Source: Mobula hypostoma | Lineage: Eukaryota | Assembly (NCBI RefSeq): GCF_963921235.1 | Contig: NC_086097.1 | Coordinates: 114,082,001 to 114,146,000, forward strand | DNA length: 64,000 nucleotides | Direction of reading: 5' to 3' | Part shown: one piece after another, positions 18,966 through 54,074 of the stretch | Layout: each line of letters starts with the position of its first letter | Position numbering within the stretch: position 1 is the first letter of the stretch | The notes under the pieces: generated by a model | Seen by the model: only the letters and a program-made list of their open reading frames with translations | The model's database searches: none | Told to the model about the DNA's origin: nothing | Program-made: the position numbers and the translations under genes

Positions 18966-20437
18966 TCGCAAACAAGAGAAATCTGCGGATGCTGGAAATC
19001 CAAACAACACACAGAAAATGCTGGAGGAACTCAACAGTCCAGGCAGCATCTATGGAAAAGAGTACAGTCAACGTTTCAGGCCGAGACCCTTCAAGCAGGA
19101 CTGGAGAAAGAAAGATGAGTGAAGTTAAAAAGTGGGGGAGGGGAGGGGTGAAAGGTGAAAGGTGGAACTGGGAGGAGAGGGGTGAAGTAAAGAGCTGGGA
19201 AGTTGATTGGTGAAAGAGATACAGGACTGGAGATGGAGGAATCCAATCGAAGAGGATAGAAGGCCATGGAAGAAAGAAAAGGGGAGAGAAGCGCCAGAGA
19301 GAGGTGATGGGCAGGCGAGGAGATATGGTGAAAGAGGGAAAAGCCGATGGGCAATAGTGAAGGGAGGGTATTACCCGAAGTTTGAGAAATCAATGTTCAT
19401 GCCATCAGGTTGGAGGCTACCCAGGTGGAATATAAGGTGTTGTTCCTCCAACCTGAGTGTGGCCTCATCGCGACAGTGGAGGAGGCCATGGATAGGCATA
19501 TTGGAATGGGAATGGGAAGTGGAGTTAAAATGGGTAGTCACTGGGGGATCCCACTTTTTCTGGCGGATGGAACGTAAGTGCTCAGCGAGCTGGCTTCCAA
19601 ATCTGAATCGGGTGCCACACTGGGAGCACCGGACTCGGTATATGACCCCAACAGAATTACAGGTGAAGTGTCACCTCATCTAGAAGAACTGTTTGGGTCC
19701 CAAAGTGGTAATGAGGAGGAAGTGTACTGGCAGGTGTAGCACTTGTTCTGCTTGCAAGGATAAATGCCAGGAGGGAGGTCAGTGAGGAGGGACGAATGGA
19801 CAAGGGAGTCGCGTAGGAAGCGAACCTTGTGGAAAGCAGGGGGGAGGGAAAGATGTGCTTGGTAGTGGGATCCCATTGGAGATGGCAGAAGTTATGGAGA
19901 ATTATGTGCTGAATGCGGAGGTTGGTGGACTGGTGAGTGAGGGTAAGAGGAAGGGTGGCGGGATGATGGGGTAAGAGCAGATGTGCTTGAAATGGAAGAG
20001 ATGCGGTTGAGGGCTGCGTTGGTGGTGAAGGAAGGAAAGCCCCTCTCTTTGTAGAAGGTGGATATCTCCTTCGTTCTGGAATGAAAAGCCTCATCCTGAG
20101 AACAGATGTGGCAGAGGCGGAGGAATTGAGAGAAGGGGATGGCGCTTTTGCAAGTAATGGGGTGGGAGGAGCTGTAGTCCAGGTAGCTGTGAGAGTCCAT
20201 GGGTTTATAATAGACATCAGTAGATAAGCTATCTTCAGAGATAGAGACAGAAAGATCAAGAAAGGGGAAGGAAATGGACCGGATGAATTTGAGGGCAGGG
20301 TGGAAGCTGGAGGCAAAGTGGATGAAGCCATTGAGTTCTGCATGGGTGCAGAAAGCAGCACCAATGCAATTGTCGATGTCGCGTAGGAGAAGTGGGGGAC
20401 GGCCACCAGTGAAGTCTTGGAACAGAGACTGTTCCAC
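18966..20437 (-). mobile_element. 5'-truncated Penelope-like element (RT C-terminus, GIY-YIG, pLTR)
   Basis: ORF 19892-20437: LLRDIDNCIG (YIDD-derived), FPFLDL, VYYKPMDSHSYLDYSSSHP, AIPFSQFLRL. Confidence 0.9.
19065..19103 (-). ncRNA. Degenerate minimal hammerhead ribozyme motif in Penelope pLTR
   Basis: CAGTC CTGCTTGA AGGGTCTCGGCCT GAAAC GTT GACTG; helix I intact, core box altered. Confidence 0.6.
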
Positions 20438-21285
20438 GTGGAACAGTCCCTACGTGACTCCCTTGTCCATTCGTCCCTCTGCAATAATCTCCCTCCTGGC
20501 ACTTATCCTTGCAAGTGAAACAAGTGCTGCACCTCTATCTCCACACTCACTGCGATTCAGGGCCCCAAACAGTCCTTCCAGGTGAGGTGACACTTCACCT
20601 GTGGGTTTGTTGGGGTCATATACCGTGTCCGGTGCTCCTGGTGTAGCCTCTTGTATATCGGTGAGACCCGACATAGATTGGGAGACAGTTTCACTGAGCA
20701 CCTACACTCCTTCCACCAGGAAAAGCGGGAACTCCCAGTGGCCACCCACTTTAATTCCACTTCTTATTCCCATTCCGATATGTCAATCCATGGCGTCCTT
20801 TACTGTCGCAATGGGGCCACATTCAGGTTAGAGGAACAACACTTTATATTCCAGCAGGGTAGCCTCCAACCTGACGGCACGAACATCAATTTTTCGAACT
20901 TCCAGTAATGATTACCCCCCCACCCTTCACCATTCCCCATCACCTTTTCTCTCTCTCACCTTACCTTCCCATTGCTTCCCTCTGGTGCTCCTCACCCTTT
21001 TTCTTTCCTCCATGCCCTTCTGTCCTGTGCTATTGGATTCCCCCTTCTCCAGCACTGTATCTCCTTCACCAATAAACTTCCCAGCTCTTTATTTCACCCC
21101 TCCCTGTCCCGGTTTCACCTATCACCTTGTGTTTCTCCCTCCCCTCCCCCCACCTTTTAACTCTACTCCTCATCTTTTCTGTTTCTTCAGTCCTACTGAA
21201 GGGTCTCGGTCTGAAACATCAACTATACTTTTTTTTCCATAAATGCTGCCTGGCCTGCTGAGTTCCTCCAGCATCTTGTGTGTGT
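20438..21285 (+). mobile_element. Inverted partner Penelope fragment (GIY-YIG endonuclease plus pLTR)
   Basis: GVIYRVRC...YIGETRHRLGDSFTEH...VATHFN (GIY-YIG), followed by pLTR. Confidence 0.9.
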
Positions 21286-21896
21286 GACCTACTCCTTTCT
21301 GAATTTCCTGTACTTTCTCAAGTGCGTGTGTGCGTATGCATGTGTGTGCTGACATCTGAAATTCAGGAACAAAGGCAACAGTGGGTTATTCAACCCATTG
21401 AGTCTTTCTATTGGATAGTCACTGAGCTGTAATTCCCAGTTCCTTGTCTTAGTTAAATATCTCTCAATATTCTTAGTTAGCAAAGACCCTTCTCATGGCA
21501 ATGGGGAGTTACTTTCAGATATTTGATGAGGTTTATATTCTACTTATGCTGTTTTTCTCACTGATGAGACCATGCTGGAAGAACTTGGCTGGTATCTGAA
21601 CATCAGCAAAGTGAAAAAAAATTTCAGAGCTGATGCAACCTATCTTTTTCTTTTTCTGAAGTTCCATGCTGTGTGATTTTGTCTCCCTTTTTCCCATTTT
21701 AGACACTGAAGCTGGTGTAGATTTCTAGTATATATTGAAAGCGTTTGAGTGTTATGGAAGGTTAATTTAGTGTCATCCAGTTCTTGACAACTGTGCACCT
21801 CAAATTTATGATATTGATATGTGCATTTATAAACACGGAAAACATGAACCTGTCTTTTTAATGCTGTTATTTTCTGTTCCCACGCACACAATTTAC

Positions 21897-22592
21897 CGTT
21901 AGGTCAGCCCTGATGGCAAAGTTCTCTGGCTTGATGTCACAGAGATGGAGCTGGTGGGAAAAGTCATTCTCAAAATGCCTAGCTAGATCTAGGAAGCTAA
22001 CTGCGATCCCATTAGCTGCCTGCCACAAGGCCTTGCTGCTGCTGCCTCGCCAGGAGTGGGCGCCCAGCTCTTCCAGGGCAAAAAGGTTGTGATGCCAAGC
22101 ATGTCCAGCTGTGAGGTACTCAACGGCGTAGAAATGACCGCAGGAGCCCACCATTTTGAGAACATGTTTACTGAGATCCTGCAGTAACTGGAAAAAGACA
22201 TATTCTTCCTGCTGTAGGAGAGACCACATGCTGGCTAGCTCTGCCCTTGAGAAAGAGCTCCTCCTGTTTTTTAAATGCTTGGTCCATAGCTGTGGTACTG
22301 TAACATTCTTCACATCCAGACCCAAAGAGTGTTTGATTTCCAAGGCAGTAAAGACCAGGATGTCAATATCTAGAATGGATCCGCTCTCTTGCTCATCCAG
22401 CAGGTAAAAGCTGTCATAGCTTAAAAAGTCTTCTAGTTTGGATTTCAGAATTATAGGCCGCCCATTCCAATCAGCCTGTATAACTTTCTTCCCTTTGTCA
22501 TAGTACAGACATCGTTTATAAACCATTGTCTGTGTGACACACAAGTCCTCGCACAGGTTCCCTGTCAGCAATCCCTGCCGATAGTCACGACA
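21897..22592 (-). CDS. DIPK1C: DIPK1C/FAM69C-type kinase, coding exon 2 (232 codons)
   Basis: Acceptor tttattacag|TGT and donor ACG|GTAAAT; encodes CRDYRQGLLTGNLCEDLC, IILKSK, LWSLLQQEE-like MWSLLQQEEYVFF, GSCGHFYAVEYL and HLCDIKPENFAI, all FAM69-family motifs. Confidence 0.95.
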
Positions 22593-23249
22593 CTGTAATA
22601 AACATAGAAACCCACAATCAGCTCTATTGCATTCAATCGAAGCAAGCAACACCAAAATATAAGCATCTGGTATATGTGAAGTTAAATCAAGCAAAATAAA
22701 ACTATGCAGGAAAACTTAACATTAGGTTTGAAATATCATAGAGCAAGGAATAGTTCTCACATGTCTGTGAATGGGATTTGTGGTTTACAAACTCAGCACT
22801 GTCCTCCCCAGCATCAAGGCCATCTTCAAAAGGAAGACGTGCTCCCTTCTCATTACTACCATCAGAGAGGAGGTACAGGGGCCTTGAAACACACACTCAT
22901 TGTCTTAATCAGCCAATGCTCTGCAACTTTACAACACCATCTCTTTCAGTTCCATAACGAAATGAAAGAAATTCATGATTTTATTTCACTTCTTTCAAAT
23001 CAATCCATGCATCCACTGCATGCTCTGGTGTTAAATGACTCAATGGAGGCATGGAAATTTAAAACCATACTGATGCTTAAATGTTCACTGAGAACTCACA
23101 CATAATTTTCCCTCAGATAAACTTCAGCAAATACATTCAAGCAATAATAGAATCTGTGGTGATATTTGTTTTCTTTGATGTCCAAGTGATTGTTACTAGT
23201 ATAATGTTCTAAAGGTCATTCAAAAGATAGTTGCTCATTAATGCAACTA

Positions 23250-23995
23250 TCTAATCAGCCAATCATGTGGTAGCAACTCAATTCAGACATGATCATGTCC
23301 AGACCAAAGATCAGAATGGGGAAGAAACATGATCTAAGTGACTTTAACCATGGAATGATTTTTGGTGCCAGAAGGGGTGGTTTGAGTATCTCAGAAACTG
23401 CTGATCTCCACGGATTTTCACACACATCCGTCTCTAGAGTTACACACACACAATGCTGTAGGAAGTCAGCAGGTCAGACAGCATCTATGGAAATGAATAA
23501 ACAGTCAATATTTCAGACTGACACCCTTCTTCAGGACTGAGAAGGAAAGGGGAAAATGCCAGAATAAAAAAGTGGGGGTAGGGGTAGGAGACTAGATGGA
23601 AGGTGATAAGTGGGTGGGGAAGGTCAAGGGATGGAGAAGAAAGAATCTGATAGGAGAGGAAAGTCGACCATAGGAGAAAGGAAAGGAAAAAGGGAAGGAG
23701 GTAGGGACCCGGGAGGAAGAGATAGGCAGGTGAGAAGGGGTAAAATGTCAGAGGAGGAATCGAGTAAGGGGGGGGGAGAAAAGTTTTTTATCAGATGGAG
23801 AAATCTATATTTATTATTATTATGTTTCGATATTCACTCCAGAGTTTACAGAGAATGGAGTGAGTAGCATTTCTCTGGGCGTAATCACTTTGGTATTGCG
23901 AGAGGTCAGAGGTCTCACTTTGAAGTGAAAGGGCCACCGTAGTAGATGACCGCACTGGGTTCCACTCCCGTGCCTAATAAAGTGGCCACTGAGTG
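23250..23995 (+). mobile_element. Internally deleted Tc1-like transposon, interrupted by a Penelope pLTR (about 23443-23806, -)
   Basis: MGKKHDLSDFNHGMIFGARRGGLSISETADLHGFSHTSVSRV...YREW (Tc1 HTH); right end AATAAAGTGGCCACTGAGTG|TA. Confidence 0.8.
23502..23539 (-). ncRNA. Minimal hammerhead ribozyme motif (both core boxes present, weak helix II)
   Basis: CAGTC CTGAAGA AGGGTGTCAGTCT GAAAT ATT GACTG. Confidence 0.6.
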
Positions 23996-24019
23996 TATTT
24001 TGGAATGAGACAGGAATTT

Positions 24020-24510
24020 ACTAGATAGATAGGCAGATAGATACTTTATTGATCCCAAAGGAAATTACAGTGTCACAGTAGCATTACAAGTGCAGAAATA
24101 TAAATATTAGAAGAGAAGTAGTAAGAATAAAAAACAATTTACCACAAAGAGTCTACAGGAGGAGGTCATTGCTTCCCTGGCTATAGGTTAACTCATCATG
24201 GGGCCTAATTGCTAAGGGTAAGAATGACCTCATATAGAGCTCTTTAGAGCGGCGCATTGTCTTAGTCTATTACTAAAAGTGCTCCTCTGTTCAGCCAAGG
24301 TGGCATGCAGAGGGTGAGAAACATTGTCCAGAATTGCCACAGCCTCCAGTGTGTCTGGTTTGACTATTATAATAGAGCCAGCCTTTCTAATCAGTTTATT
24401 GAGCCTGTTAGCATCACCTGGTTTGATGCTATTGCCGAACGCATCACCACATGGAAGATTGTACTGTACTGGCAACAACAGACTGGTAGAGCATGTGAAG
24501 GAGAGTCATT
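24020..24510 (-). mobile_element. Rex1/Babar- or L2-group LINE 3' fragment
   Basis: DANRLNKLIRKAGSII...ILDNVSHPLH motif; ctat/atct-type tail. Confidence 0.7.
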
Positions 24511-24618
24511 AACAGGAGAATCATTAAAAGGCTGCTGGACTAGTGTGACTTTCTAAAAACTGGCAATCATTTTCATAAGGAAGAGTTTTTAGCTGGAGTG
24601 CTAGACAATGCTATAAAA

Positions 24619-25713: not shown

Positions 25714-27269
25714 CTATAAAATAAGAGGGATTTTCTTGTTTATTAATTCAGAGTGCATTGTTGTTGTTGGCAATGCTACCATGTATTATCCATCCCACAC
25801 TGTCTCTGAAACTGAGGAGACAACAGAAATTTAAAGGCATAATGCCCTGTCATTTTAAGGGTTGTATCAATTTCTTCATACTTTTGCATGTAGAATTACA
25901 CATTCCCACATACTGCAGACATGAAGACTGCCAACGACAGGCCTCTTCACTCATGAAGAAGTAATAAAGAAACTTGGTAAATGGTGTATTGCTCCCCGAA
26001 TAAATTTCTATGGAAAATCATTATTACTCTGGGTAATTTCCAGGGACAGCAAAGAAATGAGTTTAAACAAATCATAAAACAAAGCATGCCAGGTTCACTT
26101 GTAGACTTCAATTGAATCCCCAGTTTGGTAATGATGCTTAATATCTTTAACAGAGTTTCTCAATGTTTTATGTAAAGCAATGGGGACACTTGTGAAACGA
26201 ACTGGTAAAGCTTCAATATTTCAGATTCTTTGGAGTAGTCAGCAGTAGTAAATCAAGATCTTATTATTTATCAGCCAGTCACCATCTCCCAAAATGAGGA
26301 GAAACTTTCTAGCGTCTAGACCTGTACTCTTTCATTTGTCCCCCCATCTCCCCCATCCCTCTCTTAGTTTGTTTCCCAATATATACTTAAACACACTTCT
26401 AATAATCGGTAATTAAAATAGCTTGAATTGTTTCAAAATTTTATTCTTTCAGACGATATGTACAGCATGTCGATGACAATGCTCCTATTCTTTGTCCACC
26501 CCTGAACTGATGTGGCAATTATGAGTTAACAATATCAGTATGCCTCAAGTCACTTATGTCAGACTAAGTAAGAATAATGAATTTGCTTCTCTGGAGTATT
26601 TCAAAACTGTTGCCAGGTCTTGTCTAAAAATCCAACCCAGACACAGACACTTTAACCAAATGTGCTTTTCAGCTACGAGGGTTAATATTGAAATAATGAA
26701 ATACAGGCATACAGCACTTGATAACTACTGTATATAATGAAGTAATTCCATGATAGCATATTTTATTTATTATGCTTATAGAAGATATTTTTTCAGGGAA
26801 AGGTTAAAGGTTCAGGTTTTGCTTGGCTGTTTTAGTTTAAAGAACTTAAGACCTTCGAGAATTGTATTGTCATTTGTGAATGTGGACCTTATTGATGAGG
26901 CCAGCATTTACTGAACCAGTTTAACCATTATTATTGAGTAGGCAGTGGTGAATTACCATCTTGAACTGTTTCAGCTTATGCAATGAAAACACTTCCATTT
27001 CTGTTAGATCTGGAATAGCAAGATTCCATAAAGATGAAGAATAGCAAACTCTTTTCAAATCAGAACAAGATGTCAATTGAAGACAGCTTACAGTAGTGGT
27101 ACCCCTATGTACCTACTGTCCTGTCCATGAAAGTGTCACAAGTCATAGTCATAGGATGCACTGGTGAATAAACCATAGCAAGTGCTTCTTTTAGATGGTG
27201 AACATTGCAGCCAGCGAGAGTGACTAAAATGAGTAGATGATTAAAATGGCAAATGGGAAGCTGGTCCCT

Positions 27270-28750
27270 CTTTCAGCTCCTCCCACTTTCTCCAGACTCA
27301 AGGGGTAGCCATGGGCCCCAGCTATGCCTGGCTCTTTGTTGTCTATGTAGATCAGTCCACGTTTCAAGCCTCCCCCAGTAATGCTCCCCAGCTCTTCCTC
27401 CGCTGCATTGATGACTGCATTGGTGCTGCTTCATGCACACATGCTGAACTCCTCAATTTCATCAACTTTGCCTTTAACTTCCACTCTGCCCTGTAATTCA
27501 ATAGGTCCATTTCTGACATCTCCCTACCCTTTCTCAATTTTTCTGTCTCCATCTCTGGAGGCAAACTGCTGACTGACATCTTTAATAAACCTACTGATAC
27601 CCATGGTTATCTTGACTATACCCCTTCCCAGCCTACCTCCTGTAAAAATGCTATCTCTTTTGTCAGCTCCTTCACCTCTGTTCCCAGGATGTGGCTTTCC
27701 TTTCTAGGACATCAGAGATGTCTTCCTTCTTCAAAGAATAGGGCTTCCTATCTTCCACCATTACTGCTGCCTTCACCTGCAACTCCTCCTTTTCCCAAAC
27801 ATCTACACTCACCCCAGCCTCTGGCCTAACAGTGATAGAGTTCTTCTTGTACTTATGTATGACGCCATGAGCCTCCACATCCACCATCACCAAAGAGATC
27901 CCACCACTATCTTTACCTCCCCCCTCCACCTTCTGCTTTCCACAGGGATTGCTTCCTCCATGATTCCCTTGTCCATTCATCCCTTCACACTAATTTCCCT
28001 CCTGGTATTTATTCCTGCAAGCGGCCCAAGTGCTACACCTGTCCCTACACCTCCTCCCTCAGCTCAATTAAAGGTCCAAACAGTCCTTCCAGGTGAGGCA
28101 ACACTTCACTTACGAATCTGCAGGGTTCGTCTATTGTGTCCGGTGCTCCTGATAGGGCCTCCTCTACATTGGTGGGACCAGTTGTAAATTAGAGGAGCGT
28201 TTCATTGAGCACTTCTGCTCCATCCACCAAAAACAGAACTTTCCAGTGGCCAAATGCTTTAATTTCGATTCCCATTCCTGTTCCAACACGTCAGTCCTTG
28301 ACTTCCGCTTGTGCCAAGATGAGGCCACTCTCAGGGTGGAGGAGCAAAACCTTATATTCCATCTGTGCAGCCTCTGACCTGTTGAAATGAATATTCATTT
28401 CTCCTTCCAGTAAAAAAATCCCTTCTCTTCCCTTCTTCTCCTATTCCGAATTCTGACCTCTTACCTTTTCTCACCTGCATATCACCCCGTACCCCCCCCC
28501 ACGGGCTATCATCCCCCTTCCCTTTCTCCTGTGGTTCTCTCTCCTCTCCTGTCAGATTCCTTCCTTTCCAGCCCTTTATCTTTCCAACTCTTCTGGCTTC
28601 AGTTTCTAGCTATCCTTCTTTCCCTCCTCCTGGCACCTCCCCCCTCCTCTACAGTCCAGAAGAAGGGTCTCAGCCCACACCATCAACTGTTTATTCATTT
28701 CTCTAGATGCTGCCTGACCTCCTGAGTTCCTCCAGCATCCTTAAATGTGT
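27270..28750 (+). mobile_element. Penelope-like element (RT, GIY-YIG, pLTR), decayed
   Basis: MGPSYAWLFV...FLRCIDDCIGAASCTHAEL; downstream GIY-YIG remnant and pLTR. Confidence 0.88.
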
Positions 28751-29482: not shown

Positions 29483-29489
29483 AGGGCCC

Positions 29490-29852
29490 CTGGTCCCTCT
29501 CTCATGTTACCTCCTTGCCCATCCATTGCCTCCCTCTGGTGCTCCTCCCCACCCACCCCCCACCCCCACTTTTTTCTTTCTCCCATGGCCTTCTGTCTCT
29601 TTCACCAATCAACTTCCTAGCTCTTTGCTTCATCCCTCCTCCTCCAAGTTTCACCTATCGCCTGATGTTTCTCTCTCCCCTCCCCCACCTTTCAAATCTA
29701 CTCCTCAGCTTTTTTTCTCCCGTCCTGCCAAAGGGTTTCGGCCTGAAACATCGACTGTACTTTTTTCCATAGATGCTGCCTGGCCCGCTGAGTTCCTCCA
29801 GCATTTTGTGTGTGTTGCTCGGATTTCCAGCATCTGCAGATTTTCTCTTGTT
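29490..29852 (+). mobile_element. Penelope pseudo-LTR
   Basis: Pyrimidine-rich body, hammerhead-like motif at 29720-29757 and the GATGCTG...CAGCATC terminal hairpin. Confidence 0.8.
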
Positions 29853-30164
29853 TTTGCAGCATCTGGAGAAAGTTCACCAAAGTATTGCAGTAAGGAATTC
29901 CTGCAATCTTATACCAGGGTGAGATCACAAGACACCCACAGCAAAACTCTACTTGCTATTGCTTTCCTTCACTGGGATCACTGATAGCAGCTGACATTTC
30001 GCCAAAGACCCTTCTTCAGACATTGCAAGCTTTCTCTCAATTAAGTTGTCTGATTTTGCTCTAACTGTGTGGTTGTAATCCAGACAACATGATTTTGTCT
30101 CATTTTGTGAAAAAACTGTGTATAGGGAGGAGCATTCAATCACACAGCTATTTAGAAGATAGAA

Positions 30165-32367: not shown

Positions 32368-32369
32368 GG

Positions 32370-33355
32370 TGTCATGGTCTGGTCCGTGAAGTCTGTATTC
32401 TGGTTCACAGTCCGGTCCATCGACCCTTGCTCCAGGTTTTCCTGTCTACCCTGTTTCCGTTCTTGTTGAGCTCTAATTGAGGCAGATGATGCTCGTTGGG
32501 GCTGGCTGCATAAATACCTTCAGAGACCAGGGCGTGGCTACTGGATTGTTCTTGTCCTTACTCCTTGTATCCCTTCCTCTGCCTTCTGATTCCTCGCCTG
32601 AAGCCTTGCCCGGTAACTCTCGCCTCACCTGAAGCTCTCATTCCACCTTGCAATGCCTGAAGCCCTGCCTTGTCTTGCCAGTAACTCTCGCCTCACCTGA
32701 AGTTCTGTCTTGCCTTGTTTTGCTGTCTTGTGCTGGAGCCACCCTGTACCTAGCTCCCTTCCTGTCCCTTGCTTCCGTCGGGTAAGCCAGGCCGTCTTGC
32801 CATTACCTGCTGTTGGTTCTGTCCCTTCCTGTCCCTTGCCTCCGTTGGGTGGAGATCCACACCCTGCCCAGGAGGAGCTTCCAGTCTCAAGTCTCCAGCC
32901 TCCTGCCAAGCCTCACCTCAAGTCTCAAGTCTCCAGCCTCCTGCCAAGCCTCACCTCAAGTCTCAAGTCTCCAGCCTCCTGCCAAGCCTCACCTCAAGTC
33001 TCAAGTCTCCAGCCTCCTGTCAAGCCTCACCTCAAGTCTCAAGTCTCCAGCCTCCTGCCAAGCCTTGCCTCAAGTCTCTAGACTCTAGCCTCAAGCCTGA
33101 AGACTCCAGCTTCCTGCCTAGCCTCAAGCCTGAAGACTCCAGCCTCCTGCCAAGCCTCGCCTCAAGCCTCTAGCCTCTAGCCTCAAGCCTGAAGACTCCA
33201 GCCTCGTCCTGCCTGCCAGCCAAGCCTCGTCCTTGCCTAGTTCTGGGGTCCGAGCCAGAAGCAAGACCCAGGTACTGGGTCCTTGTCCAGTCTCTGGCTC
33301 GGAGTCCAAGCCCGGGCTCCTAGCTCTCTTGTCCAGTCCTGCCGGCGTGTATGAC
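32370..33355 (+). mobile_element. LTR-like element (family B)
   Basis: TGTCAT...ATGAC termini; CATAAATA box; homologous to the split element at 3253-9486. Confidence 0.7.
32886..33075 (+). repeat. 38-bp tandem repeat, 5 copies
   Basis: Unit CTCAAGTCTCCAGCCTCCTGCCAAGCCTCACCTCAAGT, near-identical and with no spacers. Confidence 0.92.
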
Positions 33356-34592
33356 CAGCGGGACTAATGGAATGGAACGAAGGATTCCAAATAAATTGTG
33401 CGTTGCAAATATTTATGTTTCTGTGGCGTCCATTAATATAGACTGCGGTTTCAATCGGGAAAGAATGGCGCAATTCTATTTTAATATTTCACATCGTCGT
33501 GCGTGTTAATCAATAATGTAAAACAAAAAAAATATATATAGTTGAGTAACTTCTGTGGTAAAAAGCGGTAAATGTCTCTGTGATTACACTACGTGACCAG
33601 CCTGATCTCGAATACAGAATGTATCTATTAAGTGAAGGGAGTGAGGGAAATGTCTTTTATTGAACACAACAAGGTTTTAAAGTTGCAAACTAGAGGTTCT
33701 GTAAATGCACACCATTTCTCAGTGGAAGCAAGAGAATCAAGCAGCAAATGTTTCGAGAATTTTTTATAATTCGATTCCAAGTGGAAGGCTGGTTTTTATT
33801 TAACAATTTCAAACCTTGAAGAGGTTGTTGCACATTATCGAGTGTTCGTTGCCTGTGCTAATAATTGTTGGGCGCACAGCAATGAAACCAGGCTGTGTCG
33901 CTCCCGTTACTGTATTTAGTAGCTGGGTGAACTGCGAATTGACGTTATCGTCGGCTGAAGGTGCTCATCCCGTCCCCCCGGCACAGGCAATTAATCATCC
34001 ACACTGGTGAGAATCAATTGACCAGATCGAGCTTCTAGCTGGCTAAAAGCGTGGCCAGAGGATGAAGCCCGTTTATAATAGCGCTGGGTGCGTGGAAAAG
34101 TCACGTCTGAAGTCTGACTTCATCTTCGCAATACTTTTAAATCGTCCTCACCGTAGGCAGACAAGCACTAAATAAAATGCAACTTCTTCAAGGTTTGGAG
34201 ATGTTAATTGCATACTAAACTCTCACTTTCAATGATTCATGCAAATAACACGAATAATTTGCTATTTAATTCTTTTGCTTCCTATGAGAAATGGTGAGCA
34301 TTTATTTTTACGGGAAATAATATAACTCTTCTCCAGTTAGAAACACCCGATCGACATCTGGCTACAAAGGTCAAAATATATTTTTAAATGGTTACCAAAT
34401 TAAACTCGAACAATATTCGTAAGAAAAACAGCTTGCTATTTATAAATTATATATATAAAGAACCTTGAAATAAAGCTTGTCTAAGGAGCAAGTCCCGTCA
34501 ATAGAAATCCGGAACCATCACATCAGTCACTAGTGACTAAGCAGTAATATTTCGCACATCTGCACTTAGTACTATCTCGTAAAATTCCTTAC

Positions 34593-34778
34593 CAATCGTC
34601 CGAGAATTCTTTTACTTTTCTGGTCGGTGCAATATTCGGCGAAGATATTCTTGTGGATGAAGACTGACATGTTTACAAGAAGCCAGCAGGCGATCCATAA
34701 GAGGAGGCAGACCAGAGCAGATTTCCTAATGGTCTTCGGTTTCAAGTGCCGACAGCCTACACTCCCGAAGGCTGGCAT
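34593..34778 (-). CDS. DIPK1C: DIPK1C/FAM69C-type divergent kinase, coding exon 1 (62 codons: basic N-terminus plus TM/signal anchor)
   Basis: ATG at 34778 (GCGATGC); translates MPAFGS...ALVCLLLWIACWLLVNM...EYCTDQKSKRILGRL, resembling the 'CTDEKSRRILAAL' motif of FAM69C; donor TTG|GTAAGG at 34593, phase 0. Confidence 0.9.
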
Positions 34779-35520
34779 CGCGGAGGTCACTTGTCCGCCT
34801 CCCGTCCTGGGAACCGAATAAACAGGAGGATCGAAGCCGAGTCTCCGGCTCTGCTGACTGTCCCGACATCTCTCTGGGAGCGGCTTCAGCCTCCACAGAG
34901 ACTCGCTCTCGAGCCCGGGTCTCGCCTGTGATGCGCCAAAATGAAGCAAGAACGAGTTCCCCTGGTGTGCGAAACCACACAAACGTCTGACAGTTCGATC
35001 TTTCCTTCGTTCAGCCAATACTTCTGGTAAAATGTGCGCATACACGAAATATTCTCTAACAAGAAGACAGACTTATGCCGAAGCCTTTCTTTTCACAGAG
35101 GTTCTCTCAGTTTAATGTTTAAGCCACGTGCTTCCGCATTTCTCCTGCTGTCACTGGCTGAGTGCCACAACCATGGAGCGGGAACTTTGACTGATGTGAC
35201 CCCGGGCTGCCCCCGTGGAATGTTGCTCGCCATTTCAAGTTTATTTTTTTTAGTTAGGAGACAAAGAGAGAGAAGGGCATGAACTCAATTGATCACAATT
35301 GCCACACAGCGGCGGGGGGACGCGTTGCCTGGGAAATAACTGCGCCTGTGCGGAGCTGAATACGATCGGCTGGTGAAATAGAACTAAGCCTACATCCTAG
35401 GGAATAAACTAAAGCAGTATGTATGGGGGCGGGGGGGGGGTGTTCGGGATGTGGTGTGGCGCGACTGATTTCACTCTGTGAAACACTGGGGCGCACTGGT
35501 GCCACGTAACATGCAGTCTA
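34700..35520 (-). promoter_or_regulatory. CpG-rich 5'UTR/promoter region of the DIPK1C-type gene
   Basis: Non-repetitive and visibly CpG-retaining compared with the CpG-depleted window; G-rich GC-box-like tracts near 35310 and 35425-35440; directly upstream of exon 1. Confidence 0.65.
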
Positions 35521-35537
35521 ACCCATCGCTCTCTATG

Positions 35538-36118: not shown

Positions 36119-36147
36119 CAGTCCTGATGAAGCTGAAACGTCAACTG
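36119..36147 (+). ncRNA. Hammerhead ribozyme motif with canonical core but helix II reduced to 4 nt, in a Penelope pLTR (about 36000-36243)
   Basis: CAGTC CTGATGA AGCT GAAAC GTC AACTG. Confidence 0.6.
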
Positions 36148-39100
36148 TTCAATCCCCTCCACAGATGCTGCCTGATCTGCCGACTTCCTGCAGTACTTAG
36201 TGTGTGTTGCTCAGGATTTCTAGCATCTGCTGAAGCTCTTGTGGTTAGTTAAGCGGTTGTCCACATGGGGCACTTACCGCTAATTCCAAGCGGTAAATTC
36301 CATGACCTTCATCTGAATCTCACTAGTGTGTAAAGCACTAGATCATACTCTAAACAATCACTGTAAGCCAAAGTTACAATGCCATTTGGCCCACAACCTC
36401 CACTGCTCACTCTTTGTAATACAGTCGCTGTCCAATTAGTCCCATGCCTAACTCCTTCCACACAACCGAGTATTTTCTTTTATTTGGACAATGGACCGCA
36501 TTCTTCCACGCACTTTTATTTTAATGAAAGCCAATCGGGAAAAAAATACGATCCAAACAACATTTTCAACTACCTACCCACATGAAGTCATAGTCTGGGC
36601 CTCTTTTTATTAGAAGCAGTTTGGAGAATGAAAGGTGACAAAGGGGTTCAAGTTATGACTGACCTATTTGTATATAAAATAACGTAGGCCTGGATACAGT
36701 AAATGGGAAGGGCTTACTTCCATCAATCGGAAATCAAAATTTTGGGACGTAGACAGAAGGATTAGTGGATGATGATAACTGGAAATTCAGTTATTATTGC
36801 CATGTGTACTGAGACACACTGAAACACGATGTTTGTATGTCATCCAGACAGGTCATAGACCATGGAACAGTACAGCACAGTGACGGCTCTTCAGTCTGCG
36901 AAGTTGTTCCGACCTTCTAACCTTCTCCAATATCAATCCAAATCTTCCCTCCATTTTTCTTCCATCCATCTGCCTATTGAAGAGTTTTTTAAATACCCCT
37001 AGTGTATCAGCCTCTACCACCACCTCTGGCATATATCACTCTCTGTATAAAAAACTACCTCTGACATCTCCCCTAAACTTTTCTCTGATTGTCTTAAGAG
37101 GATGTCCTCTGCTATTAGCTACTACCGCACCGGGGATAAGGCATTGGCTCTCCATTTTATCTTCGCTCTTATCATCTTATACACCTCTATCCAGATGCCT
37201 CTCATCCTCCCTTGCTCCAAAGAGAAAAGCCCTAGCAACACTTTACCTTTCCTCATAAGACTCGCTCTCTAATACAGGCAGCATAGAACATAAAACATAG
37301 AACATAGAATAGTACAGCACTTTACAGGCCCTTCTGCCTACAATGTTGTGTTGACCCTCAAACGTTGCCTCCTATATAACCCCCCACCTTAAATTCCTCC
37401 ATATACCTGTCTAGTATATGGACAATCTACTTAAATTGTTTATCCTGATTGACCTACCTACATTTTGGATTCTTGGATATGAGAAATTTAATAATCTTTG
37501 CTAAAAATGAAATGTTTTGTAGTTTGATTTTAAAAAGAGTTATATCAGCTTCCCACCAGCTTTTCCTGACTGAAAACAAGACCAATTCATTTCAATACAA
37601 CTCCAATTTTTGCCGGTTTCATTTTTGCTCTGCATTGTCAATGTGCTGAGCTTTTTTAAAAAAACACATCCACCTGAAGTCCATGCCTACAAGCAGTAAG
37701 ACCACAAGACACAGGAGCAGAATTAGACCATTCGGCCTATTGAGTCTGCTCCGACATTTCATCATGGCTGATCCATTGCCCTTTCAACCCCATTTCTCCT
37801 GCCTTCTCCACGTAACCTTTCATGCCCTGACTAATCAAAAGCCCATCAACTTACGCCTTAAATACACCCAATGACCTGGCCTTCACAGCCTCATGTGGCA
37901 ACAAATTCCAGATTCACTACCCACTGACTAAAGAAATTCCTCATCTCCATTCTAATTGGACGTCCCTCTATTTATTACCTTCCATCCATCAGGCTCTTAA
38001 ACATGGACAACTTCACTCACAACACTTAACTAATCACTGACCACAACCTATGGATCATTTTCAAGGACTCAATAACTCATGTTCTCGGTATTACTTATTT
38101 GTTATTACAGTATCTGTTTTTATGTATTTGCACAGTTTCTCTGCTTTTGCACATTGGTTGTTCATCAGTCTTTGTGTGCAGATCTTCACATCCTGGTAAA
38201 TCTCCTCTGCACCCTCTCTAAAGCTTCCACCTCCTTCCCATAATGTGGTGACAGAGAATTTTGGTAAATATTGCAAATGTTTCTGCTATAACTTCCACCA
38301 TTTCTTTCCATCAGGATCAGAGGACCAGTCCACCTTTAAGCCCAGTACTTCTATCATCACCACCCCTGTAATGATTTGCAAAGGCAGTGATTGTATCGAG
38401 ATCCTCACTTTCCAACACCTCTATAACATCTCTCTTTGGCCTGTTAGCTGTGTCCTCTGTCGTGAAGACTGAGACAATTTCAGTGTCACTACTGGTAATT
38501 CCAATGACATTACTCTGCGAAAGATGGAGATCTTCTATAGGTAATCCTTTGTTGTTATAGTAATCCTTTGTTTCTTATGCATTTCTGTGCCATCATAATT
38601 CAATGCTACCTGATATATTGTGAGATTACCTACCTCTAGCACCTTCTTGCTTTGCAACCCCTTTTTCTGTGGAGATGGGGGAGAGTTGATTTTCTCTCAT
38701 ATTCCCTACAGCTCTCTCTTACTGGTCACCTTTAATCTATGCCCTTTGGTTTTAGGTTTCTGTTGAGAGAAAGTTTTTTCACTATCCATCCTATCTAGAC
38801 CTTTTACCATTTTGTGCACCTCAGTCAGCCTCTTCAGTCATCTCTGCTGTGAGGAAAGTAAACCCACCCTATCCTGTCCCTTCTCATAACAGAACTGATT
38901 CATCCCAGGCAACATCCTGATAATTTTCCTCTCCACCCTCTCCAGGCCATATACATGTTGCTACGATGTGGCGATCAGAAACATACATCATACTCCACTT
39001 GTAACCTAAAAATCTCCTGAGCTTTAGGGTTATATATTCAATGCCCCATGCGAATGAAGTTCAGTTCTCTGTTTGCCTTCTTCATTACTATGTCCACATA

Positions 39101-39202
39101 AGCTGTCATTGTAGGGATCTATGGATATACACCAAGATCTCTCTACCAGGGCTCTAGCTTTCATAATGGATTTCCCACCCTTATTAGACATCACAAGATT
39201 GG

Positions 39203-40100: not shown

Positions 40101-40114
40101 CAGCTATAATGCAA

Positions 40115-44220: not shown

Positions 44221-44635
44221 GCCTATTATCAAAGACCATAAGAATTAGGCCATTCAGCCCATTGAATCTGTTCTGTCGTTTATCATGGCTAATTTACTGT
44301 CTCTTCCAACCCCATTTTCCTGCCTTCTCTCCATAACCTTTGACATCCTTACTAATGAAGAACCATTCAGATTCCCGCTCCCAATGACTTAACTGCTACA
44401 GATGTCTATGGTAATGAATTCCACAGATTCACTGCTCTCTTGTTGAAGAAATGCCTCCCCATTTCTGTCCTAGACACTCCCAGTATTGGAAAGATTCTCT
44501 TCACATCCACTCTGTCTAGGCTTTTCAATATTGGACAGGTTTCAGCCATAACCACAAGAGTTTCTGCAGATGATGGAAATACAGAGAAACAGACACAAAG
44601 TGCTGGAGGAAGTCAGCAAGTTTATTCCTTTATGG

Positions 44636-44715
44636 CAGGGGTTCCCAACCTGGGATCCATGGGCCCCGTGCTTAATGTTATTGGTCCATGGCATAAAAGC
44701 AGTTGGGAACCCCTG
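44636..44715. mobile_element. 80-bp hAT-type MITE inside a Penelope pLTR
   Basis: Perfect 14-bp TIRs CAGGGGTTCCCAAC / GTTGGGAACCCCTG; a half copy ends near 17571; TSD not recognisable. Confidence 0.8.
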
Positions 44716-46553
44716 TTCTTACGAGAGGAATAACAGTCGACAGTTCATGCCCAGAATCCTTCCATGGATTTTAGAAAGGAAGGGGGAAAAAGCCGGAATA
44801 AGAAGATGGGGTTGGGGAATGAGTACAAACTGGCTGACGATAGGTGAAGCCAGATGAGTGTCCTCTCCTATCAGATTCCTTCTTATTCAGCCTTTTATGT
44901 TTTTGTAACTATCAGCTCCCAGCTTCTCACTCCATTCCCCTCCATCATTCACCCTTCACCTGTCACCTGATAGCTTTTTTTGGCTTCTTCCCCCTGTCCT
45001 GATGAAAGGTCTCACTGACTTTTATTCCTCTCCATAAATGCTGTCTGACCTGCTGAGTTCCCCAGAGTTTTGTGTTTTACCCCAGATTCAATCGCTCACT
45101 CACACACGAGGGACAATTGGTGGCAGCCATTTAACATACTAATGCAAATGCGTTTGGGATGTGGGAGGGGATTGCTGTACCCAGGAGGAATCGGTCACAC
45201 AGTCAGAGGAAGAATGTGTAGACTATGTGGGCAGCACCTTATGCTGGGAGTGAACTACAGTGGCTAGAGCTGTAGCACAGGAACTCTACTAGTTAAACTG
45301 CTAGGCCACCCAACAGAATCTCCCTGCTCGAGTTTTCTGAGCCTTTGGACAATTAAGGCAATGATCCATGCTGAATTTAACCACCTTAACTACCACTCAT
45401 GCCATCCAGGGATTTGTAGACCTACACTCCATTTATTTTATATTTCAGAGATCCAATTATTTATGACGTGCATATCAAAACATACAATAAATGTGTTGTT
45501 TGTGTTAACAACCTAAGGATGTACTGGGGGCAGCCCACAAGTGTTGCTACACATTTGGGCGCCAACAACGCATGCCCACAATTTTCAGCTGAAGCAACGA
45601 AACAACAACAGCAAAACAAGCCCCCATTCCTCCCTCCCTCCCACCTGCATAGACAGTCCTCCAACTCCATGATAGGCCTCTAGGCCCTCAACTCTAGGAT
45701 AGGCCTCTAGGCCTCCCGCTTCCAGTGCACTCACAGAATACAGCCCCCAACTTCCCCACTGAACTCGCAGACTCAGGATTCCAGCAGTTAGGGTCTCAAC
45801 CTTCAGGCATCAATATTTAGTATCAACTGCAGGACTAGCCCATGACATGTCCTCAAACCCCGGACGATGAACTCCGGGCTTACCGATGACGAGACCCCAA
45901 ACTGCAGGCATCAAACTCCAGATTTTCCCATTTACCTACCTCAATGCTCCTTCTGATCAAGTTCCCCTGGGTCCTGTTATACCTCCACACATAGTGTCCA
46001 TTTATTTCTTGAATTACTTGTCCTCCAAAAATCCATGACCATACACTTCTGAAGACCAAATTTAATGTGCCTTTCTTTTGTTCATTCCTATATTCCTGTA
46101 TCCTTGAACAGAGCCAATTTAGCTGCCATTGGCAAAATCCTTAATGAAGGCCCAAATATTTAAGTCTATTATTTATACCAGAAAAGAAATGGAGCTTTAT
46201 ACTGATGCCGGTGGAATCCTACAGAGGCACTTTTTAATTCAACAGTTCCACTTTTTTACATTCTTAGAACATTTTTCTCTGTATGGCTTTGTCAAGTATC
46301 TTGTTAGCCTCCATTTTTACAACATCAAATGCTTTACGCCCACTCATATCATAGTCACCGCCTCAAAAAAATTAAATTGTTAGTCTGATGTGATATATCC
46401 TTAACAAATCTAGCTGACTATCCTTGATTAATCTGCACCTCTTTATATATTTATTTATGACATCCCACAGAAATTGTTCCAACAACATTCCTTTCAGACT
46501 CACTGGCCTATAGTTGAAAAGGCTATTCTTTCTTCCTTTTAAACAATGGTGTA

Positions 46554-46697
46554 CATCAGTAACCTTATGGTCCTCCAAAACTATGCCATCAGTAACCTTA
46601 AGGTCCTCCAACACTCTGCCATCAGTAACCATATGGTCCTCCAATGCTGTCCTCCAGCACTGTGCCAACAGCAACCTTATAGTCTTCTAGCACTATG
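46554..46697. repeat. Degenerate 33-bp tandem repeat (about 4 copies) within a CR1 RT remnant
   Basis: Unit approximately CATCAGTAACCTTATGGTCCTCCAAAACTATGC; adjacent NYRPVSL motif. Confidence 0.7.
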
Positions 46698-46924
46698 TCT
46701 ACAGCCAAAGATAATTGCATAATTTCCAACCTCGCTTCTTTAAAAAGCCTAGGATATTTTTCTCTGGTCTGGTGACTAATCCACTTTTGAATTAGTACCC
46801 TCACTTTCTATGTTTGCCATTACTAAAAATTCATACACTTCCACATTTATGTCAAACTAATTTCATCACACACTGTACAATGTATTCTTCGCTGTTGTTA
46901 AATCTATACTCTAATCTTGTTTCT

Positions 46925-47625
46925 GCCAGAAATTTCCACATGAGGAAAGGAATTATTTTAATGTGTGGCCTCCTCTGCAATGGTGAGACCTTATGTAGAA
47001 TGGGGAACCACTTCGTCAAGCACTGTTGCATCATCCATCACAAAAAGTGGGATTTCCCTATAGCCACCCATTTCAATTTCATTTTCTATATCCATTCTGA
47101 CATGTTATTCCATGGCCTCGGTGAGGACATTCTTATGCTGGAGGAGCAACACTTCATACTCCATCAGGATAGCCTCCAGCCTAATAGCTAGAGTATTGAT
47201 TTCTCCCCCATCTCTCTTATTCCATTTCCCATTCTGGTTCTCCTCCCACCTCCTCACTTCTCCTCACCTGCTTTTCGCCTCCCTCTTGTGCCCCTTCTCC
47301 TTTCCATTCTCCCATGGTCCACTGTCATGTTCTATTGGATTCTTTCTTCTTCAGCCTCTTCCACCTATCACTTCCCAGCTTCTCATTTCAAACCCCATCC
47401 CACCCACCTATCTTTCCCCTTATCTGGTTTTGCCAACTCGTACTCCCCCTCCCCCACCTTCTAATTCTGGTTCCTTTACCTTTCCTTTGCAGTTCCGATG
47501 AAGGATCTTGGCCCGAATTTTCGACTGCTTATTCCCCTCCATAGATGCTTCCTGACTTACAGAGTTCCTGCAGCGTTTCGCGTGTGTTGCTCAAGATTCC
47601 TAGTATCTGCAGAATCTCTTGTGAT
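46925..47625 (+). mobile_element. Penelope GIY-YIG remnant plus pLTR
   Basis: LLCNGETLCRMGNHFVKH...PIATHFN...LEEQHFI; decayed hammerhead at 47490-47527. Confidence 0.8.
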
Positions 47626-50141: not shown

Positions 50142-52335
50142 ATTATGTTTTGTAACTTCAAAAGCTATCAAAGGTAAAAAGGGATACGTGTTTACTTAGC
50201 TTTACTTTCCTCTTCTTTAGTGAGGTGCTCACACATGGCGTGGTGGCGTAATTCTTACATATAACCCATAAGGAATTATGCAAATACAAAAAGAAGGCTT
50301 AATCAAACAGTATTACTCAAGTATTATTGAAATATTAAATACACTACACTGCTCCTTGCTTAGCTATAAACTCCAACTCAATCTAGTGGTTCTGACAGCT
50401 CAAGACACATTGCTTCTGGATGTATTGGCGTGGCTATCTGCTATCTGCTGATCGATCCAAGGCCACCAGAGAAAGCTTCGAGCCAATGCTTTCATGTTGA
50501 CCACACCTAGATGACTAACGTAGCTCCGTCAACACTTTAGCCTTCGTGCTGCTGCTGTTAATGGAACACCCTTCTAGGAATTGAAAATGGACACTCGTGG
50601 TTAATGATCAGTAATGAGGGTAAACTCTCTCCCACAGAAGTAGTTGTTGAAATGTTTTACACCCCAAACCATATTCAAGGCCTCTATGTCGATCTGCGCA
50701 TAATTTTTCTCTACAGCAGTAAGGGAACGTGATGTAAAACTATGGGGCATTCACTTCCATCACTCATAATATGGGACATAACTGCCCCCGTACCATCAGG
50801 CGAGGCATCATAGGCAAGCTTCACTGGATGACGTGGACCACAAAGTGTGAATACAGGGTCTGACCTCACCTTTCTTTCAGAGAGCTGGCTTTGTCCATTG
50901 CTATTTCTTCCCATTCTGTAGTAATGAGCTCAAGAGGTGGAGCGGAGTAGCCGGGTTTGGCAGGAACCTTTTACAGTAGTTGACAAATCCTAAAAAGTAC
51001 CACAACTGTGACAAATCCTTTGGTCTTGGGAAATCCAACACTGCTTGAACTTTCTCAGAACACCTGTGCAAATTCTAGTGCACCAATGGTGCGACCACAG
51101 TAAATGGTGCTTGGTTTGAAGAATTCACACTGATTGCATCATGCTGTGAGCCCATAATCTTCTAATCTTTTTTACACTGTCTTGAGATTTTGGGGATGTT
51201 CCTTGCCATCCTTACCGGTAACAATGATGTCATCTAGGTAACACTGAGTGCCTGGGCAGCCTTGCAGCACCTGGTCCATAGCTTTCTGCACAAATGCAGG
51301 TGCAGATGCAGATGCTTGTCCAAATATAAGCCTATTATAGTGATAAAGCCCTTTGTGAGTGCCTATTGTGAGAAGCACTTTGGACTCTTCTTCTATCTAC
51401 ATCTATAGGTAGGCCTCAGCTAAGTCCATTTTGCTGAAATGTTTTCCTTCAGAAAGGTTTGCAAAGATATCCCCTACCCTGGGCAGAGAGTATTGATCTA
51501 CTTTCAGTACTGGGTTGATGGTGACTTTAAAATCACCACAAATCCTGACAGACCCATTGTTCCTGGCTACTGGGACCACTGGTGTTGCCCATGGGCTCCA
51601 CTCAACCTTGGAAAGAATTCCTTCAGCCTCCTTGCAACCTAGCTCAACAGCTACTCTTTCACAGATGGTATGAAGAAATGGATTGACTTTGTAGAACCTG
51701 GGTGTAGCATTTTTATTTGACACTATTTTATCCTTAATATGTTTGAATTTTCCAAAGCCATCCTAGAACATTGTTGTTGCATCATCCAATAACTTTTTTA
51801 ATTCGCTTTCAGTTGATGCTCTTGCAGGGGGTGTGGCATGCAAGTGGTAGATGGATCTCCAATTGAGTTGTAGTTGTCTGAACCAATCACCATCCCACAA
51901 TGCTATGATTTGACCGTACACAAGCTCAATATTTTAAATATCATTCCCACAGGGGTTATCCTTTCTCCAGCATAAGTTCTTAGTTGGACATCAGCAGACT
52001 TCAGATCAATACCTTTGAAATTACATTCAAACACATTTTGTGGTAGGACTGAAACAGCCAAAACAGTGTCCTTTTAATTAATTTGCCATTCATTTCTGGT
52101 GTAAGCTATACTGCTTGTCTATTGTTAGTTTTCACATTGTAAATCTCTAGGCTCCCAGTCCTGTGTCAATCTCACCATTATAAGATTTCTCATCGACTGC
52201 ATGTGGATTAGTGCTCTTTTTGAAATAGCTTGACTTTTTTTTATCTTTTTCTCTTCCAAGTGCAGTCCACTTATTTTTATGTGGGCCCCTGCCACAGCAG
52301 TAACACAATTTGCTCAGCCATGCAGGTTTCTGTTT
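50142..52335 (-). mobile_element. Ty3/Gypsy element remnant (protease, RT, RNase H) with purine-rich tract and 3' LTR (about 50142-50348)
   Basis: WATPVVPV...GSVRICGDFKVTINP...FSKMDLAEAYL; THKGLYHYNRLIFG; QCYLDDIIVTG; LAYDASPDGTGAVMSH; AGCAAGGAGCAG then TGTAGTG at 50348. Confidence 0.85.
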
Positions 52336-52592
52336 CACACAAGGGAAACACACGTAGTCACATGGGGAGAACATACAAACTCCTGGCGAACAGTGGCAGG
52401 AATTGAACCCCAACGCTGACCACTGGCACTGTAAAGCAATTGCCCAAGCCACTATGCTACTGTGTCGCCCAGTCATCCTCCATCTGCTTCTGATAAACTC
52501 AAACAGACTGATTTGAAGGTTAGTTTCTTTCTCACCCCCAAAGCATTCACTTCGTAGTGACACTTAAAACTAAATGAAGAAAGGTTTCAAAG

Positions 52593-54074
52593 TCACAAAC
52601 AAGAGAAAATCTGCAGATGCTGGAAATCCGAGCAACACACTCAAAATGCTGGAGGAACTCAGCAGGCCAGGCAGCACCTAGGAAAAGAGTACAGTGGACG
52701 TTTTGGGCTGAAACCCTTTGGCAGGACTGGAGAAAAAAGATGAGGAGCAGACTTAAAAGGTGGGAGGAGGGAGAGGGAAACACAAGGTGATAGGCAAAAC
52801 CTGGAGAGGGAAGGGATGAAGTAAAGAGCTGGGAAGTTGACTGGTGAAAGAGGCAGAAGCCCAGACTCTCACAGTTGTCTGAACTAAACCTCGTCCCACC
52901 CTGTTACTTGTAAAAACACGATCCCCTTCTCTCAATTCCTCCATCTCTGCCACATGTGCTCTCAGGATGAGGCTTTTCATTCCAGAATGAAAGAGATGTC
53001 CTCCTTTTTCAAAGAAAGGGGCTTCCCTTCCTCCACCATCAACACTGCCCTCAACTACATCTCTTCTATTTCACACTCATCTGCTCTTACCCCATCCTCC
53101 CGCCACCCTATCAGGGATAGGGCTGTCCTTGTCCTCACCTACCACCCCACCAACCTCTGCATCCAACACATAATTCCCTGAAACCTCTGCCACTTACAAC
53201 AGGATCCCATCAACAAACACATCTTTCCCTCCCCCCCACTTTCTGCTTTCCACAGGAATCACTGCCTACGCAACTCCCTTGTCCATTTGTCGCTCCCCAC
53301 TGATCTTTCTCCTGGCACTTATCCTTGCAAGTGGAACAAATGCTACACCTGCCTCAACACCTCCTCCTCACTACCATTCAGGGCCCCAAACAGTCCTTCC
53401 AGGTGAGGTGACGCTTCTTCTATGAGTCTGTTGGGGTCATATACTCTGTCTGGTGCTCCTGATGTGACCTCCTGTATATCGGTGAGACCCGAAGTAGATT
53501 GGGAGCATCTACACCCCATCCGCCAGAACAAGTGGGATCTCCCAGTGGCCACCTATTTTAATTCCACTTCCTATTCCCATTCCGATATGTCCATCCATGG
53601 CTTCCTCCACTGTCATGATGAGGCTACATTTAGGTTGGAGGAACAACACCTTATATTCTGTCTGGGTAGTCTCCAACCTGATGGCATGAACATCGATTTC
53701 TCAAACCTCCAGTAATGCCTCCATCTCCCCGCCTCCCCCCAACTTCACCATTTCCCTTCCCCTTTTCCCTCTCTCATGTTACCTCCTTGCCCGCCAATTG
53801 CCTCCCCCTGGTTCCCTCTCCCCCCTCCCATTTCTTTCTTCTATGGCCTTCTGTCTCTTTCACCCATCAACTTCCCGGCTCTTTACTTTATCCTTCCCCC
53901 TCCAGGTCTGACCTATCACCTTATGTTTCTCTCCCGCATCACCTCACCTTTTAAATCTACTCCTCAGCTTTTTTTCTCCAGTTCTGCCAGAGGGGTTTGG
54001 AAGACATCGACTGTTCACTCTTTTCCTAGATGCTGCCTGGCCTAGTGAGTTCCTCCAGCATTTTGTGTGTGTTG
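52593..54074. mobile_element. Penelope insertion: inverted pLTR (about 52593-52858, -) joined to a 5'-truncated body (+)
   Basis: CSQDEAFHSRMKEMSSFFKERGFP; GIY-YIG remnant; TSD-like GAAAG(G/A)TTTC at 52579-52588 and 54075-54084. Confidence 0.88.

Follow-up and report, generated by a model that had tools for sequence, protein, structure and literature searches.

Introduction

Metazoan Penelope-like elements (PLEs) carry minimal type-I hammerhead ribozymes, and those described by Cervera and de la Pena in 2014 (PMC4209133) lie in the 3' pseudo-long terminal repeat (pLTR), behind a reverse transcriptase (RT) and a GIY-YIG endonuclease (EN). We analysed a 64,000-nucleotide stretch of the Mobula hypostoma genome (contig NC_086097.1, positions 114,082,001 to 114,146,000; hereafter the window), in which five hammerhead motifs of a putative Neptune-type PLE occupy the same place and carry C instead of A at core position 6 (C6 rather than A6). 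Their layout is likewise that of the published motifs, which run from stem I through the core, an extra base, a stem II opened by a G-C pair, GAAA, ACGU and H back into stem I. A core variant with a fixed U3-A8 is already described in that paper, where the base pair is kept, whereas the A6C change seen here is uncompensated; and in its Fig. S3, a list that holds no cartilaginous fish, position 6 is A in 56 of 56 motifs.

The same core substitution occurs in the hammerhead of phage Bcep176 (PMC3088659, PMC7151607), a single intergenic phage ribozyme that has been assayed, is slow in Mg2+ and prefers Mn2+. In contrast, the C6 motifs described here belong to a high-copy vertebrate retrotransposon lineage, have the minimal dimer-type fold and are known from sequence alone. 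The Poseidon element PAc of Anolis carolinensis (PMC11167929) is likewise an endonuclease-containing (EN+) PLE, with a pLTR hammerhead and a tail after the cut site that marks insertion ends. PAc is a member of the Poseidon clade with a canonical core, and the dispensability of its ribozyme comes from engineered C3G/G8C mutants in vitro, whereas the present element has the Cys linker of Neptune and Nematis and a naturally occurring core change that has spread. Naiad and Chlamys (PMC8557442) are PLEs that have likewise reached high copy number without a canonical hammerhead. In these the motif is absent and the endonuclease is N-terminal, whereas the present subfamily retains the motif, with a single core letter altered, and has A6 sister families next to it. 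The function of the hammerhead in PLEs is described in PMC8557442 as unclear, and the question is raised there whether it may parasitise the element.

The element, the motif and the A6C substitution are each already known, and a C6 Penelope subfamily is not a new ribozyme class, A6C being already in print. The combination of a PLE with C6 was not found in the hammerhead and Penelope literature searched; Repbase and Dfam lay outside that search, and its novelty is provisional. With an uncompensated core change, and with A6 sister families alongside it in one genome, the amplified subfamily offers a natural paired test, and searches demanding CUGANGA miss whole families.

Results and Discussion

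C6 motifs in the window

An earlier reading of the window (the sequence-only reading) had listed five copies with C at position 6, and all five candidate motifs were confirmed in the window sequence. The coordinates it gave are the low end of each 38-nt motif and do not denote core positions (Table 1). Hammerhead numbering was taken from a fit to the published minimal hammerhead consensus (PMC4209133). An iterated nhmmer search of the window yielded 20 related stretches, of which the 15 covering the motif were aligned; a C6 core was present in none of the five left unaligned (two tail-only, three weak or partial). Position 6 was C in five of the aligned copies, A in eight, G in one and a gap in one. 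The five C6 copies (a to e) make up three insertions, namely two head-to-head pairs (a/b and d/e) and the single copy c. Five independent copies, as had been counted earlier, were rejected on this ground, the motifs at 19065/21188 and 52692/53979 being paired arms.

The CUGANGA core with A6 was found in none of the five, and since all have C6 they were filed as a variant rather than as canonical PLE minimal hammerheads. The majority states of the five copies reproduce the layout of these hammerheads (stem I, an extra base after A9, a G10.1-C11.1 stem II, GAAA, palindromic positions 15-16 and H17), single copies being eroded. The proposed core CUGCNGA survives as the inferred source state but is intact in 0/5 copies, with a 1-nt insertion in a, a G5A change in b and A at position 8 in c, d and e. 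Positions 7-8 read T7-G8 in copies a and b and C7-A8 in copies c, d and e, the partner of C3 being G8 in the former and A8 in the latter. A register shift placing A at position 6 was tried and rejected, there being a single G able to serve as G8 in a and b. The TACTCTTTTCC-like flank ascribed to the C6 copies was found again, while the GGGTTT-type helix II said to be shared by three copies corresponds to a loop change in those at 29720 and 52692 and is degenerate in that at 53979. Rfam covariance models gave 0 matches at E <= 5 across the whole window, A6 copies included, and this null does not single out C6, since the A6 copies are equally unmatched.

A>C was seen at 6 of 493 letters (1.2%) in the A-majority columns of these copies. 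When the C6 split was counted by insertions, three against eight A6 copies, Fisher's test gave p = 0.006. Shared C6 exceeds chance expectation.

C6 as a subfamily mark

The sequence-only reading had proposed that C6 is diagnostic of a subfamily and was present in an actively transposing source element. Three degenerate rows (9760, 13700 and 44780) were dropped in two of three core-dropped trees and in the hammerhead-dropped tree, giving 12-row trees of five C6 and seven A6 copies. With core columns 6-8 dropped, the five C6 copies in these trees formed one branch, at 90/88 (3' block) and 98/98 (whole pLTR), and they still formed one branch, at 98/99, when the whole hammerhead was dropped; 5 of 500 label shuffles matched this result. 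On such trees C6 takes one change and is not scattered as independent mutations. It also co-segregates with other sites: eight flank columns co-vary with it (29701, 29703, 29706, 29707, 29714, 29759, 29760 and 29783), the cleanest being 29783, with G in 5/5 C6 copies and A in 9/9 others. The proposal was thus upheld, the trees and flanks supporting inheritance of C6 from source elements rather than scatter, and C6 likely arose once in a source element.

Within the C6 branch, copies c, d and e form a sub-branch (95/95, hammerhead dropped) and have in common a 37-nt upstream deletion, the loop change and four further substitutions outside the core. C6 is kept in both subgroups, with and without the deletion, which suggests that the C6 lineage persisted across two or more source forms that differed in this respect.

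C6 beyond the window

Contigs of 4 of 24 runs (X2, X5, X10 and X13; organisms A, B, D and G) were aligned to copy c at 80% likeness. At 29728, which is position 6 of copy c, A made up 48, 47, 11 and 15% of depth in X2, X5, X10 and X13, and non-A 52, 53, 89 and 85%, contig depth being distinct from copy number, the sites being unlinked, seven rows lying outside the listing and some differences going uncounted. At the control site 29721, a private A>C of copy c 7 nt from position 6, A held 97-98% and the reference letter 2-3%. Relative to the depth of the subfamily's upstream block, non-A6 depth was 0.44-0.51 in all four runs, and A6 depth was 0.41, 0.41, 0.06 and 0.09 (X2, X5, X10, X13). Since non-A6 depth tracks that block and A6 depth does not, C6 is common and tied to the upstream block of the subfamily, and it is likely older than the split of organisms A, B, D and G. 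There is also a bias towards the reference letter, decayed CpG letters holding 57-73% at two control sites; because of this bias, the unlinked sites and the distinction between depth and copy number, the C6 share is no measure of genome-wide fixation. Among the copies that can be aligned, A6 probably has a larger true share than measured. Pattern scans for further copies gave none in metagenome contigs, prokaryote genomes or viral contigs.

These data also bear on whether the shared C6 could be a chance or local effect, produced by independent mutation, by duplication on a local scale or by gene conversion between neighbours. Four of the five copies are arms of two insertions, which reduces the window to n = 3 and leaves such an effect some room. 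The A>C background, however, is only 1.2%, the C6 copies are only 79-87% identical to one another and have different ends, arms d and e disagree at each of the 4 other CpG sites, and C6 is abundant in the contigs of four organisms against 2-3% at the control site. This explanation is largely refuted and we hold it to be highly improbable.

Organisms A and B (X2, X5) have extra A6 contigs, most of them carrying C7 and a C in the stem II loop, that are nearly absent from D and G. They likely carry 29761 C as well, this T>C change standing at 15 and 13% in organisms A and B and at about 1% in D and G. The A6 family of A and B is probably younger, being either a sister of the C6 lineage or a revertant from it.

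Source core and CpG decay

The CAA and TGA forms of the core had been noted earlier, and CpG decay as their cause had been missed. The other CpG sites of the C6 copies (n = 76) now read CG in 29 cases, CA in 22, TG in 21 and otherwise in 4. Since T7-G8 and C7-A8 are the two CpG decay products of C7-G8, the source core was likely CUGCCGA, one transversion from CUGACGA, and was later eroded by CpG decay. In the contigs, non-A6 with G8 made up at least 12-28% of depth in the four runs, which fits a CUGC(C/U)GA source.

Three CA by independent decay in c, d and e had p = 0.024, which we estimate at about 0.2 after allowing for some five CpG sites able to show the same CA pattern. The A8 share of non-A6 depth was 0.69-0.78, against a reference bias of 0.57-0.73 at two control CpG sites, that is, an overlap or a slight excess. 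There is a hint here that the c/d/e source also carried G8A. In that case the ribozyme would have been lost in two steps, A6C being followed in the 37-nt-deletion subgroup by G8A (CUGCCAA), which would break the essential C3-G8 pair in elements that were still spreading. We regard this sequence of events as doubtful. Were it true, a Penelope hammerhead would have been knocked out naturally in vivo while the element still amplified across a ray lineage; self-cleavage would be dispensable for retrotransposition, and the stems would be kept for another role, such as protein binding or cutting in trans.

Self-cleavage and spread of the C6 lineage

We propose that C6 likely arose once in a source element (CUGACGA to CUGCCGA) and was then inherited by three insertions of one Neptune-type subfamily. 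A6C would likely slow self-cleavage, by analogy with two assayed A6C hammerheads. The natural C6 hammerhead of Bcep176 cleaves at 0.0041 per min at 1 mM Mg2+ (PMC7151607), or at < 0.1 per min as given in PMC3088659, and an engineered A6C in a second hammerhead took the rate from 0.3 to 3.55e-6 per min at 0.3 mM Mg2+ (PMC7151607); weak cleavage of the C6 hammerhead is predicted from these two cases. This likely did not halt the spread, since the element is probably copied from uncut RNA, with the start in the tail beyond the cut site. In the anole element, mutants with a dead hammerhead show normal insertion in vitro, and reverse transcription is initiated internally on the RNA, at the tail (PMC11167929), from which cleavage is predicted to be dispensable here as well; Naiads are reported to proliferate without canonical hammerheads (PMC8557442). 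Each of the five C6 copies extends past the predicted cut site and on into the tail, as do the A6 copies, which would be expected of a template left uncut there (or re-ligated). The published data lean to a cleavage that is weak and unneeded for copying, and by analogy with them we consider it, on balance, probable that the spreading C6 lineage carries a weakened ribozyme that is dispensable for copying.

Several points weigh against this account. The C6 and A6 groups both retain stems I and II, C3, U4, G5, A9, the GAAAC-GU-C half and the tail. Since the fold is kept while the upstream flank differs at about half of its sites (13/24 and 12/23 between C6 and two A6 groups), the fold was under constraint, a constraint not datable relative to A6C. 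Anole hammerhead cleavage requires the element's protein (PMC11167929), and with such assistance rates for naked RNA may understate activity; the anole element, moreover, belongs to the Poseidon clade and not to Neptune. The window holds three independent C6 insertions only, and no full-length pLTR-ORF-pLTR copy (ORF, open reading frame). Lastly, in the tree of all 15 rows the degenerate row 9760, in which position 6 is missing, groups within the C6 branch, giving two changes; holding the five C6 copies together was not rejected on this tree (approximately unbiased test, p = 0.36).

With CpG and deletion columns set aside, the hammerheads of the C6 and A6 groups differ at positions 6, 7 and one loop base. 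A further listed difference, at 29726, was discarded as an artefact of the CpG rule.

The conservation of the rest of the fold against strongly diverged flanks would also suit a C6 that is tolerated, the hammerhead cutting usefully in vivo by way of protein, dimer or Mn2+ and cleavage remaining part of the cycle. The C6 hammerhead of Bcep176 reaches 0.31 per min in 1 mM Mn2+ and 0.051 in 3 mM Mg2+ (PMC7151607), the anole hammerhead cuts only with protein (PMC11167929), and metazoan minimal hammerheads are slow anyway, which sets a low bar (PMC4209133). However, in one test at 0.3 mM Mg2+ the A6C change lowered the rate by about five orders of magnitude (PMC7151607), and A8, if it was the source state, breaks the C3-G8 pair in 3/5 copies. 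The presence of A6 in all 56 representative element hammerheads also speaks against tolerance, but the search descriptor behind that set required A6 (PMC4209133). Taken with these costs, a tolerated C6 seems to us rather unlikely.

C6 RNA could, alternatively, be a partial parasite, cut in trans by A6 partners within a double hammerhead and maybe borrowing their protein. It has kept stem I, the ACGU palindrome and C17; its non-CpG differences from A6 are confined to the 5' core box and the loop of stem II, while stem I and the 3' half match; and A6 families are present in the same genome. Dimer action is the published model (PMC4209133, PMC6765202), cutting of the partner strand being our own reading. 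Against this, both pLTRs of one transcript would usually be C6 and ordinary ORF remnants occur in copies a, b and e. Folding energies are alike for all pairings and neither support nor separate a double hammerhead: with ViennaRNA the double hammerhead had -19.9, two monomers -21.0 and other dimers about -28 kcal/mol, the same for every pairing, and dimer energies do not separate C6 from A6. We judge such parasitism improbable and retain a weakened, dispensable ribozyme as the preferred reading. Single hammerhead motifs fold variably, and the folding of copy c with its tail gave z = 0.65.

The tail at 29769-29820 and its homologues show 1-3 differences in 41-47 sites between subfamilies, fewer than any flank; between C6 and the two A6 groups it differs at 1/44 and 3/47 sites. 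Downstream of the hammerhead, the tail is a candidate protein-binding and priming element.

Insertion anatomy and element identity

Copy a is a 5'-truncated PLE that holds the end of the RT core, the thumb, the Cys linker, the GIY-YIG region and the 3' pLTR with a long tail, and its alignment to the protein P0015 is interrupted by stops and frameshifts. Linker, GIY-YIG region and pLTR with a short tail are present in copy b, and copy e has the RT thumb, Cys linker, GIY-YIG region and pLTR with a short tail. The long tail is carried by one arm of each pair, a and d having it and b and e lacking it. According to PMC8557442, PLE copies are truncated at the 5' end, have a second, inverted copy there and bear a 30-40-bp tail on one side alone, and these features were found in a/b and d/e.

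Copies a, b and e are collinear with P0015 aa 447-820, as in EN+ PLEs, where RT is followed by a C-terminal GIY-YIG domain in one ORF. P0015 is an 820-aa RT and GIY-YIG protein (Pfam RVT_1 E 3e-5, GIY-YIG E 3e-4, both below the Pfam cut-offs), and P0018 passes the Pfam cut-off for RVT_1; the window's own PLE fragments, whose ORFs are broken, gave no Pfam match. The nearest proteins come from Hypanus sabinus and Mobula hypostoma, at up to 73% identity. A test for codon-position constraint on the ORF was flat (36/148, 35/154, 40/151), the frame having likely been lost across indels. Copies a and e keep a C-X4-C-xx-C linker, and a CX2-5CxxC linker between RT and EN is given in PMC8557442 as common to Neptune and Nematis. 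Neptune is preferred because it has been reported in vertebrates (bioRxiv 10.64898/2026.07.22.740005), and on these features the element is provisionally assigned to the Neptune type of Penelope-like retrotransposons. At 79-87% identity to one another and 57-68% to two A6 copies, the C6 copies are old and decayed. The A6 comparison copy h is 65-67% identical to them.

Table 1. Positions in the window of the C6 copies, their hammerhead motifs and the A6 copies used for comparison
Feature	Position	Strand	Description
Copy a	18965..20437	-	Left arm, insertion 1; tblastn to P0015 aa 447-818, blastn
Hammerhead motif of copy a	19064..19103	-	C6 at 19095, T7-G8, one inserted T
Junction between arms of insertion 1	20424..20451	.	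28-bp self-complementary; blastn self-match 93% over 28 nt
Copy b	20432..21285	+	Right arm, insertion 1; tblastn to P0015 aa 659-818
Hammerhead motif of copy b	21188..21226	+	G5A, C6 at 21196, T7-G8
Copy c	29487..29856	+	Insertion 2; pLTR only, 37-nt upstream deletion, long tail
Hammerhead motif of copy c	29720..29758	+	C3 at 29725, C6 at 29728, C7-A8, predicted cut after C17 at 29752
Copy d	52592..52863	-	Left arm, insertion 3; pLTR with long tail; adjoins copy e at 52863/52864
Hammerhead motif of copy d	52691..52729	-	C6 at 52721, C7-A8
Copy e	52864..54087	+	Right arm, insertion 3; tblastn to P0015 aa 530-820
Degenerate hammerhead motif of copy e	53979..54014	+	C6 at 53987, C7-A8, 3-nt stem II deletion
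A6 comparison copy h	27269..28739	+	CxGAAGA-type core; RT and endonuclease remnants
A6 comparison copy l	56105..56530	-	
Further A6 comparison copy	11796-11833	-	
Further A6 comparison copy	13689-13727	+	
Further A6 comparison copy	23501-23539	-	
Further A6 comparison copy	36119-36148	+	
Further A6 comparison copy	44994-45021	+	
Further A6 comparison copy	47490-47528	+	

Other features in the window

Insertions 1 and 2 lie in or beside a FAM69/DIPK1-type gene, with exons at 21870-22715(-) and about 34575-34800(-), the former matching PIP49_N and PIP49_C. The Hypanus sabinus protein P0008, named DIPK1C isoform X2, is almost wholly Penelope RT-EN, the gene model having absorbed an element copy.

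Two further pLTR remnants were seen. At 5589-5695 there is a fold-back insert of about 105 bp with two tail-only pLTR ends, a variant tail and no hammerhead, and the stretches 44690-44860(-) and 44534-44624(-) are likely the two parts of a single degenerate pLTR copy that an insertion interrupts immediately behind the hammerhead. A 38-bp tandem repeat of about 8-10 units occupies 32842-33227. A near full-length, broken long interspersed nuclear element (LINE) lies at 4085-9042(-), with an RT (RVT_1 match) and with zinc-knuckle ORF, endonuclease-like and RNase H-like segments labelled by eye, and the RT ORF of another LINE, with one internal stop, lies at 58654-59901(+).

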